Positions 25,735 through 31,630 of a stretch of DNA of 64,000 nucleotides are shown here, in pieces. The notes beneath the pieces are model-generated. The model was given only the letters and a program-made list of their open reading frames with translations. It did not search any database and was not told the DNA's origin. The first letter of the stretch is position 1. Each line of letters begins with the position of its first letter. A program made the position numbers and the translations under genes. This stretch comes from Escherichia coli (GTDB lineage Bacteria > Pseudomonadota > Gammaproteobacteria > Enterobacterales > Enterobacteriaceae), in NCBI RefSeq assembly GCF_050920415.1, contig NZ_CP169309.1. The stretch is one strand, 5' to 3'.

Positions 25735-26623
25735 CCTCCAGTTTCGCTTTGCATTCTATGTAAATGGCTTGTACGTTCTGCTGCAATTTCATTCCAGATG
25801 TCAGGCGATATGCTTCTGCAAAATATCGCTTCAAATCATCCATGTTTTCTGCCTGAGCCATTTCATCGCAAAGAAGTTGTGCTTTATCCATTATTTCCTG
25901 CTGGCGTTTCCGTTCATCTTCGCGGATATCTTCCTCTGATTTGTGCGGCATAACTGGTTCAGTCCATACACCTTCTTCTTCGTTTAGTACGTGAATAGCA
26001 CTATCAAGACGTGATGCCTTAGGCCAATACTTGCTTGCACGCTTCACGACCGTCTTTCGCGCCATCTCATTCCAGTGATTTACCCATGGTCCTTTATCGC
26101 TGAATGCCGCCTTGCTTGTTTTCCTTACAGCCTCAATTTCAGCAATACTCATCTCTTCCGTTAGATAATCACCTGCCGGCGTCTTAACTGTGCAGTAAAC
26201 GCCAACGATATCACCACGATCACCGAAGGCGTTGTATTTATGGGTTGGTGCTTTATCAAGCCCGTTTGACTCATAGGTATCGTTAGCATGAACAAGTTTT
26301 GCCTGACCCCATGAGATAACACCAGACTCCATTGCAATATGGAGCAATCCCATATAGCTGATATCAAGGCAAACCATGCCGTCGCGCGGAACCAGATAAG
26401 CCAGTTTGCTGGCCGGGTTTAAGGTGATGCCGATCGCCGCAACATTGATGATGGCGTTCTGTGCGCTGGTTGGATTTGCCAGTGCTGTTTTAGCCAGGTA
26501 ATCATTTTTCTGGAAATACTGAATTGCAAACTGGCTTTCCTTAGCCCATGTCACCGTCTGTTCAGTCAATGCTCCGCAGAATAACTGCTCCTGCTGTTTA
26601 ACGAATTCAACGATATTGCTCAT
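25712..26623 (-). CDS. RecT-family single-strand annealing recombinase
   Basis: 303 aa; motif GPWVNHWNEMARKTVVKRASKYWP resembles RecT GPWVTHWEEMAKKTAIRRLFKYLP. Confidence 0.7.
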   Translation of the reverse strand: MSNIVEFVKQQEQLFCGALTEQTVTWAKESQFAIQYFQKNDYLAKTALANPTSAQNAIINVAAIGITLNPASKLAYLVPRDGMVCLDISYMGLLHIAMESGVISWGQAKLVHANDTYESNGLDKAPTHKYNAFGDRGDIVGVYCTVKTPAGDYLTEEMSIAEIEAVRKTSKAAFSDKGPWVNHWNEMARKTVVKRASKYWPKASRLDSAIHVLNEEEGVWTEPVMPHKSEEDIREDERKRQQEIMDKAQLLCDEMAQAENMDDLKRYFAEAYRLTSGMKLQQNVQAIYIECKAKLEVASEQTV

Positions 26624-26931
26624 GCAGCTTCTCCATAAATATGTCTGCGTTTGAATATTGCGAAGGCATATTCAGCCTTAACTCTTTCGGTTATTGCATC
26701 CCAGAACCATTCAGCGGCTTTTTCCTGATAGTTACAGTCATCATCTTCCAGCCAGTCGATAGCGTCCTTAGTATGTTCATCTGGTTTATATGAGCGAAGC
26801 ATTTCGCTTATTGGGTCGCAACGTTTGCAGAGGCGATCAACTTCACTGTTGATTCGTTCGTAATCTTCATCAGTAAAACTTGCGATTATTTGCGATATTT
26901 CACGCTTATCATTCAGAGTCAGAATCATCAT
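26620..26931 (-). CDS. hypothetical protein at the gam/arf position, 103 aa
   Basis: ORF between kil-like and recT-like genes. Confidence 0.4.
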   Translation of the reverse strand: MMILTLNDKREISQIIASFTDEDYERINSEVDRLCKRCDPISEMLRSYKPDEHTKDAIDWLEDDDCNYQEKAAEWFWDAITERVKAEYAFAIFKRRHIYGEAA

Positions 26932-27012
26932 CTTTCTCCTGTTCTTTGTGCTGATTGAGCATTTTGTTCATCTGACGAATGAATTCTTCGTCTGACCAGT
27001 TATCTGTAAAAC

Positions 27013-27165
27013 TCATTTCCTGCGATACCACGGAAGATTGATGGCTGATTTCATCGCTTTATTTGCTTCAAGCCACATTTTTGAATCACCAATAAATCTG
27101 GCTATTACTGCTTTGTTCTGTGCAGCACGAAGCATCTGGTGATTAATGGCTATTTCATTGCGCAT
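27013..27165 (-). CDS. kil: Kil-like small protein (candidate FtsZ inhibitor)
   Basis: 50-aa ORF with GGAGG SD; ARFIGDSKMWLEA resembles remembered lambda Kil motif; below ORF-track cut-off. Confidence 0.4.
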   Translation of the reverse strand: MRNEIAINHQMLRAAQNKAVIARFIGDSKMWLEANKAMKSAINLPWYRRK

Positions 27166-27284
27166 AACGCCTCCATTTGTTTCTTTGCTGCTCTGATTAA
27201 TTGTTTAACTCGGCGTGATAATTCAGATTCGTGCGGGTAGAAAGCGGACATGACGCCGCTACCCGCGAGCTGAAAGTGCATCAT
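27150..27284 (-). CDS. CIII-like small protein (candidate FtsH/HflB inhibitor)
   Basis: 44-aa ORF with AAGGAG SD; central ESELSRRVKQLIRAAKK resembles lambda CIII helix ESLLERITRKL. Confidence 0.35.
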   Translation of the reverse strand: MMHFQLAGSGVMSAFYPHESELSRRVKQLIRAAKKQMEALCAMK

Positions 27285-27374
27285 GGGTAACTCCTTATAT
27301 TTGATTGCATAACGAAAACGCCTCGAGTGAAGCGTTATTGGTATGCGGTAAAGCCGCCAACAGGCGGCTATTTG

Positions 27375-27608
27375 CTATTGATTCTTTTCAAGAACATCAA
27401 TGATGTCGTCCGGGTTGTCTCCGTTGTCTTCACAAAATGCTTCGAATTCAGCCCATTTCGCGCTGATAAAATCAATTACTCTCATTAATTCGTATTCCAT
27501 ATTTTTCTCCAGACCAAAAGAATGCCGCCCATATAGAGCGGCAAGACTATCAAGGAATGATTTCCAATAATCAGAACAAGTCGGCTCCTGTTTAGTTACG
27601 AGCGACAT
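27375..27608 (-). CDS. hypothetical acidic protein, 77 aa (ral/ea10 position)
   Basis: ORF between N-like and cIII-like genes. Confidence 0.4.
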   Translation of the reverse strand: MSLVTKQEPTCSDYWKSFLDSLAALYGRHSFGLEKNMEYELMRVIDFISAKWAEFEAFCEDNGDNPDDIIDVLEKNQ

Positions 27609-27769
27609 TGCTCCGTGTATTCACTCGTTGGAATGAATACACAGTGCAGTGTTTATTAGTATGCCTGTCTTTTAACCACATCAGGCTCGGTGGTTCTCGT
27701 GTACCCCTACAGCGAGAAATCGGATAAACTCTATTCACCCCCTACAGAGAGAATGATGGAGATTCACCG

Positions 27770-28309
27770 ATGAGTAACTGGTGGCAGGAACTGTTACGTT
27801 TCTTCCTGCGTGGTCTTACGCTACAACAGTTAATTCATATGCTTATTATTTTAATTGCCCTGATAATAATCACCCCAGCATCAATTAAAGAGTGGGTAGA
27901 TATAAGGAACCCCGAAATACTTCCAGATCACTGGATGTATTACGCAATGCTTTTGTGTATCAGTTATGTTCTGAACAGGGTGATGGAGTTTATATTTCTG
28001 GCATCTTCAGACAGATATAAAAAATATCTCAGTAAGAGAGATGAGGATAAAGTAATTGTGGAGACTGAGCGCCTGTTCAATTCTCTGAGTATTCAGGAAA
28101 AAGAGGTTTTAGCATTTGCTGTTATGGCAAATAACAAAATCGTACTTAAGCACGGCGATCCGGTCGCTTTATCTCTTATGAGAAAAGGCCTTCTCCATCG
28201 CTCAGGTGTGACTTACAGCGCGTCAGGTAAAGAGAAATTTGTTATACCTGACGTCTGGTTCCATGAGTGTTATATGCGCTTTGCTGGTAAAGCTGATGAG
28301 CTAATTTAG
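27770..28309 (+). CDS. sieB: SieB-like superinfection exclusion membrane protein
   Basis: 179 aa; two N-terminal TM helices; adjacent to N; family assignment from memory. Confidence 0.5.
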   Translation: MSNWWQELLRFFLRGLTLQQLIHMLIILIALIIITPASIKEWVDIRNPEILPDHWMYYAMLLCISYVLNRVMEFIFLASSDRYKKYLSKRDEDKVIVETERLFNSLSIQEKEVLAFAVMANNKIVLKHGDPVALSLMRKGLLHRSGVTYSASGKEKFVIPDVWFHECYMRFAGKADELI

Positions 28310-28330
28310 TTCCTCGACGGCGGGGTATCG

Positions 28331-28714
28331 TCATCTCGCCGTCAGTTGTTTTGATTTCCGGTAGCCTGCTGCGTAAAGAGCTACATTTGGAAGACATACA
28401 CCAGTTTCTGGTTGCTTATGTCCAAACTCATTCGCGTACACAATGGCCGCTCTCTCCAGATTGCGTCTGTATTCTTTCTGTTGCCAGATCACGTCCTGTG
28501 CCATGAACTTAATTGGCTTAGCGTCTTCTATGCGCTCAGGCGTTTCGTGAGTACCTTTAGCCTGAATCTGCGCTCTGCTTAGAGTAGGGCGGTGTAATAC
28601 TTCTGAACTTATTGCTTCTTCGCGGGCCAGTACGCCGTTAGCTAATGCCTTTGCCTTTAAACGCTCACGACGACGAGAACGTGAATTGCCTTTGAACTGA
28701 GTTCTGCGTGTCAT
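28331..28714 (-). CDS. N-like antitermination protein (P22 gp24 type)
   Basis: Arg-rich N-terminus RRTQFKGNSRSRRRER; C-terminus LPNVALYAAGYRKSKQLTAR; downstream of pL/nutL. Confidence 0.7.
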   Translation of the reverse strand: MTRRTQFKGNSRSRRRERLKAKALANGVLAREEAISSEVLHRPTLSRAQIQAKGTHETPERIEDAKPIKFMAQDVIWQQKEYRRNLERAAIVYANEFGHKQPETGVCLPNVALYAAGYRKSKQLTAR

Positions 28715-28879
28715 ATAGACCTCCTGATGAACTTTGGTGGTGTGGTAGGTGGGAGACCCATTTCGACCTGTTTCGGCCTACTTCAATTCGGCAATAGTCC
28801 CGCAGGCCTCGCCGCTTTACGTGCGACATATTCCCGTCCATGAACCCTTCACCACACCCCAAAGTTCACTTTGGTTATT

Positions 28880-28894
28880 GCGCTTTGTCAGCGC
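28880..28894 (-). promoter_or_regulatory. nutL boxB-like hairpin (reverse strand GCGCTGACAAAGCGC)
   Basis: 5-bp stem / 5-nt loop between pL and N; matches remembered P22-type boxB. Confidence 0.5.
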
Positions 28895-28962
28895 CGTAGA
28901 TTCATATTCGAATCGTTGTATATTCACCGCCCTGGTGAGTAGTGCGTCCTGCTGATGTGTTT

Positions 28963-29025
28963 AGTATCACCGCCAGTGGTATTTATGTCAACACCGCCAG
29001 AGATAATTTATCACCGCAGATGGTT
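28963..29025 (-). promoter_or_regulatory. pL promoter with OL1-OL2-OL3 operators
   Basis: TATCACCGCCAGTGGTA (28965-28981), CAACACCGCCAGAGATA (28989-29005), TATCACCGCAGATGGTT (29009-29025); reverse-strand -35 TTGACA and -10 GATACT. Confidence 0.75.
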
Positions 29026-29182
29026 ATCTGTATGTTTTTTATATAGATTTATTTTTTTGCAGGGGTGTGTGGCTTGGGAGGTGATCGAGAGATCTGAATT
29101 GCGATGTTTAGTGAGTTGTATCTATTAATTTTCAAATAAATACAATTGGTTATGTGTTATTGGGTGAAGGGGATCGTGAGGC

Positions 29183-29208
29183 AAAGAAAACCCGGCGCTG
29201 AGGCCGGG
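29183..29208 (-). terminator. intrinsic terminator ending the cI-orfA-orfB operon
   Basis: Reverse strand: CCCGGC-loop-GCCGGG hairpin followed by TTTTCTTT, 8 bp after orfB stop. Confidence 0.55.
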
Positions 29209-29215
29209 TTGTGTG

Positions 29216-29587
29216 TTACTTAAGAACGAGTCCGTTTAAGGCATCAAGGATTTTGGAAACATAACTTCCAAAAATGTAGGCGCAAAATGCGAACACGAAA
29301 CTGACAACGACCGCAGATGCCTTGATGGTGATTTTTGCTGAGCTAATGCTTGTCTCAATACCTGACAGACGAGAATCTACAGATTTTATATCTGACTTTA
29401 CTTCAGCGAGATCGCGCTTGATGTATTCAACATCAGACTCTAGCTTTGCAACTCTAGCCTCAAGCATGTTACCTCCGCCGTTTCCTCCACCATGCCGTGA
29501 GTATGCATCATCAGTGGAATAGTGTCCAATTGGGCGAGATATGTTTTGATTTGGACGAAGCTGAGCAACCTTGTTATCTAAACTCAT
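29216..29587 (-). CDS. rex-slot cassette gene B: small protein with Gly-rich segment, coiled coil and C-terminal TM helix
   Basis: 123 aa; GGGNGGGN, heptad-like LEARVAKLESDVEYIKRDLAEVKSDIKSVDSRL, hydrophobic AVVVSFVFAFCAYIFGSYV; overlaps gene A by 14 bp; resembles XhlA-type architecture from memory. Confidence 0.55.
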   Translation of the reverse strand: MSLDNKVAQLRPNQNISRPIGHYSTDDAYSRHGGGNGGGNMLEARVAKLESDVEYIKRDLAEVKSDIKSVDSRLSGIETSISSAKITIKASAVVVSFVFAFCAYIFGSYVSKILDALNGLVLK

Positions 29588-30011
29588 CGCGAACTGATCC
29601 TGTTATCTTCACGTCAAAAAACGAACTTTTTACATCAATTACTTCGCCTTTATCAGGATTAACCAGTGATGCTCTAACTTCGAATATCCCAGGCTTGATA
29701 ATTTTCACCCTTGGGAAGTTAATTCTCATAGAAGTTGATACGATGGTTTCTCCATCGTTGGCTTCTGCTACCGTAAAAAACTTATGGTTGGAGTACAGTT
29801 TTGTGTCAATTGGTATCGGTATTTCTTGAGCATTGAAAACCTCAATGCCTATGGAATATTTTTTTGTAGCCTTAAGGCCGATAAAAAAAGCGCCAAATGA
29901 TAGATCCACTTCATGGGAGTCTTTATCCATTTCATAGATAAGAACTGGAGTTACTGGGTTGCCTTCATCCATCGCAATCGGAATGATATAAGAAATACGT
30001 TCTTTAATCAT
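29574..30011 (-). CDS. rex-slot cassette gene A: hypothetical soluble protein, 145 aa
   Basis: ATG 7 nt after cI stop on same strand; AT-rich; no family recognised. Confidence 0.55.
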   Translation of the reverse strand: MIKERISYIIPIAMDEGNPVTPVLIYEMDKDSHEVDLSFGAFFIGLKATKKYSIGIEVFNAQEIPIPIDTKLYSNHKFFTVAEANDGETIVSTSMRINFPRVKIIKPGIFEVRASLVNPDKGEVIDVKSSFFDVKITGSVRDEFR

Positions 30012-30018
30012 TTACGTG

Positions 30019-30735
<717 letters not shown>

Positions 30736-30742
30736 TTAAATC

Positions 30743-30806
30743 TATCACCGCAAGGGATAAATATCTAACACCGTGCGTGTTGACTGTTTTACCTCTAGCG
30801 GTGATA
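30743..30806. promoter_or_regulatory. OR3-OR2-OR1 operators with pRM/pR
   Basis: TATCACCGCAAGGGATA, TAACACCGTGCGTGTTG, TACCTCTAGCGGTGATA; -35 TTGACT and -10 GATAAT for pR. Confidence 0.8.
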
Positions 30807-30832
30807 ATGGTTGCATGTACTAAGGAGGTTGT

Positions 30833-31033
30833 ATGGAACAACGCATAACCCTGAAAGATTATGCAATGCGCTTTGGGCAAACCAAGACAGCTAAAGATCT
30901 CGGTGTATATCAAAGCGCGATCAACAAGGCCATTCATTCAGGCCGAAATATTTTTTTAACTATAAACGCTGATGGAAGCGTTTATGCGGAAGAGGTAAAG
31001 CCCTTCCCAAGTAACAAAAAAACAACTGCATAA
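30833..31033 (+). CDS. cro: Cro repressor, lambda type
   Basis: 66 aa, near-identical to remembered lambda Cro. Confidence 0.9.
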
Positions 31034-31171
31034 GTAACACCGCTATTTTCACAATGGACATTCGTCCTACGTCGCTGACAAAGCGAGTCCCAAGATATCT
31101 GACCAACTAAGGCCATATGCGTTTCCACGCATACCTTTCAACTAACTATTCACTATTGGAAATCTTAAGAA

Positions 31172-31468
31172 ATGGAACGAACAAGTTACAGCAAACTATC
31201 ACAGCGTGACGTTGATCGCGCAGAAACAGATTTACTCATCAACCTATCAACGCTTACCCAGCGCGGTCTGGCAAAGATGATTGGCTGTCATGAATCGAAG
31301 ATAAGCAGAACGGACTGGCGGTTTATTGCTTCGGTCTTGTGTGCTTTCGGAATGGCATCAGACATCAGTCCGATTAGCAGGGCTTTTAAGTATGCGCTTG
31401 ATGAAATCACCAATAAAAAACGCCCGGCGGCAACCGAGCGTTCTGATCAAATACAAATGGAATTTTAA
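31172..31468 (+). CDS. cII: CII-like transcriptional activator (mosaic)
   Basis: 98 aa; C-terminal TNKKRPAATERSDQIQMEF matches lambda CII, N-terminal ~75 aa diverge. Confidence 0.65.
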   Translation: MERTSYSKLSQRDVDRAETDLLINLSTLTQRGLAKMIGCHESKISRTDWRFIASVLCAFGMASDISPISRAFKYALDEITNKKRPAATERSDQIQMEF

Positions 31469-31630
31469 CAACATCCAACGAGGTAATTATATGCGAAAAA
31501 CGCAGGAAAATAAACGCGTTAATCACCGAAAAGATGTGCTACGTGACCAGTTTTATCAGGGGGTTAATCCAGCAATAGCTGTGCCACTGAGAGAAATACT
31601 TAACAGGTACAAAACTTCGGAGAAGTCAAA

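Follow-up and report, generated by a model that had tools for sequence, protein, structure and literature searches.

An intact sieB gene occupies positions 27770..28309 (+) of the window, the 64,000-nucleotide stretch of Escherichia coli DNA analysed here, and together with its regulatory parts it is very probably an allele of the P22-type SieB abortive-infection module carried by a lambda-immunity prophage. In P22, the SieB protein of the prophage halts macromolecular synthesis when superinfecting P22-like phages are midway through their lytic cycle (PMC10461980; also PMC7380047), and SieB, Esc and sas constitute a translational switch in which Esc inhibits SieB (PMC12197685, PMC10002423, PMC7067206). 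The system in the window resembles that of P22 in its Pfam family, in its slot and orientation by an N-type gene, in a promoter block of ~99% identity, in the Esc methionine and in the body of sas. Conversely, P22 SieB is 192 aa long and ends in a C-terminal NELIVQDEQLKK tail, whereas the window protein has 179 aa and lacks this tail, and the host of P22 is Salmonella rather than Escherichia.

A P22-type sieB gene beside N

The reading frame opens with an ATG and specifies 179 aa followed by a stop codon, with a GGAG placed 8 nt 5' of the start. Since this ATG is the first start codon past an in-frame stop, a longer in-frame version of sieB is impossible, and the beginning of the window protein (MSNWWQEL) lines up with the start of P22 SieB (MNNSWWQEL) as annotated in BK000583. 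An earlier note on this DNA had reported a 179-aa ORF on the opposite strand beside an N-like gene; its coordinates proved exact, and the curated family match together with the presence of the exact protein at NCBI rules out a chance frame, so that 27770..28309 is a real ORF.

The same note had ventured that the product is SieB-like and had proposed a search against the SieB family as a check. The search was positive: the protein matches Pfam PF14163 (SieB) over aa 23-154 with 73.8 bits (E 1.5e-20; the cut-off is 26), while the reference proteins of lambda and P22 score 103 and 101 bits, respectively, on the same model. The SieB-like identity is further borne out by 49-50% identity to P22 SieB across 99% of the length (49.4% over aa 2-179 with a tblastn E of 1e-43; 50% in a MAFFT alignment). 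BLASTP against SieB of SPN9CC, which is near-identical to P22 SieB, gave an E of 1e-51, and PHROG 1301 ('superinfection exclusion; inhibits SieB') matched over the whole length with an E of 3.9e-94. Identity to P22 SieB is unevenly distributed, reaching 67% in the first 75 aa and 40% beyond residue 75. The lambda SieB protein (lambdap48, NP_597779) belongs to the same Pfam family and is encoded in the same slot, between ral and N and on the opposite strand; moreover, the window prophage has lambda immunity, and lambda possesses the conserved block upstream of sieB (see below) up to the -10 hexamer (27730) only. Its identity to the window protein is, by contrast, 18-21%, and pairwise BLASTP is not significant. 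Because lambda SieB is only ~20% identical, the gene is best described as a P22-type sieB allele residing on an imm-lambda prophage, and not as lambda's own.

Family searches with the window protein in Pfam, PHROGs, NCBIfam and PADLOC returned nothing significant besides SieB. In Pfam, SieB was the sole significant family, DUF7632 falling far below its cut-off and Rex families giving no match; NCBIfam gave no match, and the family profile, searched against PDB sequences, yielded chance-level matches only. PADLOC was also negative, which is uninformative because PADLOC has no SieB model: P22 and lambda SieB are likewise not significant there (weak matches only, E 0.03-0.06). Of 1.84 billion cluster representatives searched exhaustively with phmmer, 38 were retrieved at E <= 0.001, so that the SieB family is narrow; a word-index protein search found 6 relatives. 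By these comparisons the gene is a normal, intact P22-type sieB and a member of the SieB family.

The SieB family has been known since 1971-1993, and sieB in the window is itself already known, the exact protein being named SieB by standard pipelines. In both P22 and lambda, genes of this family have been shown to abort infections by other phages. At NCBI it is the record 'MULTISPECIES: super-infection exclusion protein B [Escherichia]', which belongs to a cluster of 245 sequences. The finding is hence correct but ordinary, as databases already label the exact protein SieB, and its value for annotation is small, since the gene name changes little.

The element that hosts sieB is, on sequence grounds, a lambda-immunity (imm-lambda) prophage. 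Its repressor gene (30019..30732) encodes a product 99% identical to lambda cI, its pL has the hexamers of lambda, and the left neighbours of sieB (Kil, CIII, RecT and Gp157) are ordered as they are in E. coli M15. On the other side, sieB is convergent with the N antiterminator gene (28331..28714, minus strand; an ORF with a Pfam PF25694 N_peptide match of 58 bits), the two stop codons lying 21 bases apart. This slot and orientation of sieB, by N and on the opposite strand, are the same in P22, lambda, HK140 and SPN9CC. Because the pL promoter (TTGACA-17-GATACT, 10/12 consensus matches) is located on the minus strand at 28991..28963, sieB is antisense to the early-left transcript, and pL is the likely source of sieB-antisense transcripts; the annotation of HK106 has a PL-like promoter at the equivalent place upstream of N. 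A consensus scan predicts an intrinsic sieB terminator, consisting of an 11-bp stem and then AGTTGTTTTG (28316..28353, plus strand), which overlaps the last N codons. Neither P22 nor SPN9CC conserves the sequence of this terminator-like hairpin, which follows the sieB stop at 28316..28343.

To the left of sieB, a 77-aa ORF (27375..27608, minus strand) is probably over-called. It contains a strong terminator-like hairpin (27543..27523) with a T-rich run, where HK106 has an annotated rho-independent terminator, and its PHROG match (phrog_15754) is confined to the last 40 aa; a GGAG and an ATG at about 27500 would yield a 41-aa protein within it.

The rex slot of the prophage, between pL and cI (29216..30011, minus strand), holds an ORF of 123 aa and another of 145 aa in place of rexA/rexB. 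Both match only PHROGs of unknown function (phrog_6136 and phrog_5893), and neither gave anything convincing against PADLOC. The first has a coiled coil and ends in a hydrophobic C-terminal segment; its XhlA-like and CorA-like matches are weak and fall below threshold. The earlier note had held that a SieB-like protein would add a 'second' exclusion function, a count that presupposes that the rex-slot ORFs are exclusion genes, which is a putative role. The presence of sieB gives this lambda-immunity prophage, devoid of rexAB, at least one gene that can be recognised as anti-phage.

Homologues of the P22 promoter, Esc start and sas antisense RNA

The P22 record BK000583 annotates a sieB promoter, a sieB RNA start, the sieB CDS and esc, an internal in-frame CDS beginning at codon 25. 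Transferred through alignment, these features place a Psie homologue at 27700..27730 on the plus strand (-35 hexamer TGTACC at 27700-27705, -10 hexamer TAAACT at 27725-27730) and the expected sieB transcript start at an A at 27737 (+); from 27700 to 27737 the window matches the annotated P22 promoter and transcript start at every base. Psie, which is identified by homology only, escapes a generic sigma-70 consensus scan. The suggestion of the earlier note that sieB could be expressed independently of pL likewise draws its support from homology, as the P22 promoter and transcript start fall in a block (27662..27751) that is ~99% identical in P22, HK140, SPN9CC and other phages and carries Psie on the plus strand and the sas body on the minus strand. 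The predicted sieB 5' UTR (27737..27769, plus strand; GGAG at 27758-27761), delimited from the P22 transcript start, would be the target of the antisense RNA, and its stretch around the Shine-Dalgarno sequence differs from that of P22.

The upstream block was found in 133 phage records, in 118 of them at >= 95% identity. Approximately 70-90 nt of it are near-identical in lambda, P22, HK140, VT1-Sakai and many others, with 80-97% identity in Klebsiella phages, and the SieB proteins that adjoin it descend to about 20% identity. The block carries a direct repeat, CCCCTACAG(C/A)GAGA, and the promoter alone does not account for the constraint on the part that precedes the -35 hexamer. Its conservation is not a new observation, since the lambda sieB promoter was reportedly recognised by Ranade and Poteete in 1993 through this very homology. 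One of the matches to the lambda sieB upstream block, MW057783.1 ('Campylobacter phage CJLB-4', 48361 bp), lies 80 bp off the lambda coordinates and looks like lambda sequence under another name. A 6-codon upstream ORF (27753..27773, plus strand; ATG ATG GAG ATT CAC CGA TGA) overlaps the sieB start as ATGA; it is absent from P22 and lambda, is common to the window and E. coli M15, and may well have arisen by chance.

Aligned with codon 25 of P22, where esc begins, the predicted esc frame of the window (27839..28309, plus strand) starts at Met24 and would specify an N-terminally truncated SieB of 156 aa. A four-way alignment of the window, P22, SPN9CC and lambda proteins pairs Met24 (ATG at 27839) with the P22 Esc start and shows methionine at this position in all four. 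Translation may initiate at this ATG as well; no obvious Shine-Dalgarno sequence precedes it.

The sequence of P22 sas is available from small-RNA reads of a 2026 study (PMC13397905 Table 2), and its reverse complement aligns to window positions 27662..27774. The homologue in the window extends over 27646..27774 on the minus strand, with approximate ends; P22 does not share its left end (27646-27661), a six-way alignment of the window, E. coli M15, P22, SPN9CC, HK140 and lambda shows no variation in its body, and its 5' part spans the Shine-Dalgarno sequence and start codon of sieB, ending 65 nt before the Esc start. As aligned, the position of sas is the geometry required by the published switch of translation from SieB to Esc. 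We infer that the prophage can produce sas. A minus-strand consensus scan found no sigma-70-like promoter for sas, which would fit a sas derived from pL transcripts. An Rfam scan of 26500-31500 returned nothing relevant, there being no Rfam family for sas, and the sas region folds no more stably than its shuffles (z -1.26). We considered that the variable 5' part of sas might permit allele-specific escape. This idea was weakened by the predicted pairing energies: cognate sas/mRNA pairs reach -67 to -76 kcal/mol, and cross-pairs between the window and P22 still reach -47 to -49 kcal/mol. Such strong predicted cross-duplexes make cross-protection between the P22 and window alleles plausible.

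Read together with the family, the synteny, the conserved promoter, Esc and sas sequences and the predicted fold, the behaviour of P22 suggests how the module would operate. The prophage would transcribe sieB from its own weak Psie (27700-27730), in opposition to the repressed pL operon, and a single mRNA would give two products in one frame, namely the full-length SieB of 179 aa, which excludes, and Esc, initiated at Met24, which inhibits SieB. Upon infection by a sensitive heteroimmune lambdoid phage, SieB would stop RNA, DNA and protein synthesis in the middle of the lytic cycle, and the cell would die with no phage released. A phage that carries the module would protect itself, its leftward transcription supplying sas that base-pairs over 27737-27774 with the Shine-Dalgarno sequence and start codon of sieB; as sas stops 65 nt short of the Esc start, translation would shift from SieB to Esc. 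The range of targets could differ from that of P22 or be nil, given that identity to P22 SieB drops to 40% beyond residue 75.

The layout just described resembles a toxin-antitoxin pair under antisense RNA control. One could accordingly picture SieB and Esc as serving chiefly the phage's own cycle, either as a toxin and antidote that stabilise the prophage or in the timing of host shut-off, with exclusion as a side effect, and P22 unable to make sas reportedly excludes itself (Ranade and Poteete 1993). The absence of sieB from the P22-like phage L and from HK106, which has a different leftward gene in its place, speaks for a gene with no essential role in the phage cycle, and we regard an own-cycle function as the least probable of the alternatives considered in this study. 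Exclusion of superinfecting phages by abortive infection remains the preferred reading.

Predicted protein architecture

The earlier note had proposed two N-terminal TM helices. This is reasonable in the light of both hydropathy and structure prediction, with a second helix less hydrophobic than the first: Kyte-Doolittle hydropathy peaks strongly at about aa 16-38 and to a lesser degree around aa 58-79, and helices span aa 18-34 and 55-104 in the AlphaFold2 model. The latter was computed from a 27-sequence alignment and has a mean pLDDT of 90.3. It predicts a short amphipathic helix (aa 4-14) ahead of TM1 (aa 18-34), then a second short helix (aa 37-46) and a long one whose first part would be TM2 (aa 55-104), and finally a compact alpha/beta, winged-helix-like domain (aa 105-179). 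The winged-helix resemblance is at the level of the fold only, with 6-16% identity among the top matches, and comparison with winged-helix DNA-binding regulators (MarR/ArsR/TubR) detected neither sequence membership nor a basic recognition helix. Esc would be devoid of the amphipathic helix and of the first turns of TM1. At the other end, the C-terminus is 13 aa shorter than that of P22 SieB (179 vs 192 aa), and other family members stop there too.

Arg10 and Arg14 precede TM1, the loop between the TM helices is acidic, and five Lys/Arg residues are found in aa 82-90. This charge distribution suggests that both termini are cytoplasmic, and the model would expose the larger part of the protein (about aa 80-179) to the cytoplasm. 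The prediction bears on a different mode of exclusion, in which the protein would stop DNA injection at the inner membrane, in the manner of P22 SieA or T4 Imm, instead of aborting infection. In its small size, inner-membrane location and two TM helices the window protein resembles many entry blockers; its characterised homologue, however, acts in the middle of the lytic cycle, after DNA entry (PMC10461980, PMC7380047), and the bulk of the window protein would lie on the cytoplasmic side, so that we consider an entry block highly improbable. P22 SieA is indeed comparable, as an exclusion protein of the inner membrane that is encoded by prophages of the same phage family, but it blocks DNA injection and is encoded elsewhere in the genome; family searches, rather than a direct comparison, set it apart from the window protein. 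Abortive infection, the favoured mode, also has a parallel in lambda RexA/RexB, which are expressed by the prophage, associate with the membrane and abort infection rather than block entry (PMC6379469). These share prophage expression, membrane association and the abortive outcome with the module in the window, whereas they are unrelated to SieB in sequence and consist of two proteins co-transcribed with cI.

How the protein would act can be sketched more tentatively still. With both termini in the cytoplasm, the winged-helix-like part (aa 105-179) may sense a phage product, the amphipathic helix and TM1 may disturb the membrane, and Esc may poison mixed oligomers; we hold this model-based scheme to be possible and rather less likely to be right than wrong. 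Equally speculative is the view that SieB is modular, with a conserved membrane effector (aa 1-75) joined to a fast-diverging winged-helix-like sensor (aa 105-179), that its phage trigger and excluded set differ from those of P22 or lambda SieB, and that Esc is a dominant-negative subunit. If this were true, exclusion would be reprogrammed by exchanging the C-terminal domains of different alleles, which would offer a route to the SieB trigger. The additions made here are modest, consisting of a confident predicted architecture and of the distinction between conserved and variable halves, and could guide experiments on SieB.

Distribution and IS insertions

Of 5426 complete E. coli genomes, 122 carry the allele, 69 of them at full length. 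Partial megablast matches end at different points of the gene (nt 1-104, 1-220 and 1-401), and intragenic mosaicism, that is, N-terminal modules joined to other C-termini, was considered as their origin. This candidate was rejected: in all three loci examined, each an EHEC/STEC prophage, an insertion of the IS3 family or IS600 cuts the gene. The interruption follows nt 104 in E. coli 97-3250 (locus excerpt 1501-1648), nt 220 in E. coli E2865 (locus excerpt 1501-1774) and nt 401 in E. coli 2011C_3361 (locus excerpt 1501-1955), which amounts to three independent events in one 540-nt gene. Three different IS cut sites in EHEC sieB imply that the gene is dispensable to the host.

Such interruptions invite the question of whether the gene in the window is a SieB homologue by descent that is inactive as an excluder in its host, i.e. 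a carried-along or decaying moron. IS cuts at three positions of the same allele are what one would expect of such a gene, as are the C-terminal tail 13 aa shorter than that of P22 and the lack, in the phage collection, of any record with the allele at >= 60% amino-acid identity. The ORF is nonetheless intact and retained at full length in those 69 complete genomes, its structure model is confident, the promoter, the Esc start and sas are conserved, and the shorter C-terminus recurs in other family members. We therefore judge inactivity improbable, albeit less so than an entry block or an own-cycle role, and favour a functional P22-type SieB module. A dN/dS comparison of the window and P22 alleles returned no value, synonymous sites being saturated. 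Within E. coli, the full-length copies among the matches listed are 98.9-99.3% identical and are all named super-infection exclusion protein B, and the sieB gene of E. coli M15 differs from that of the window by 4 synonymous and 2 non-synonymous substitutions.
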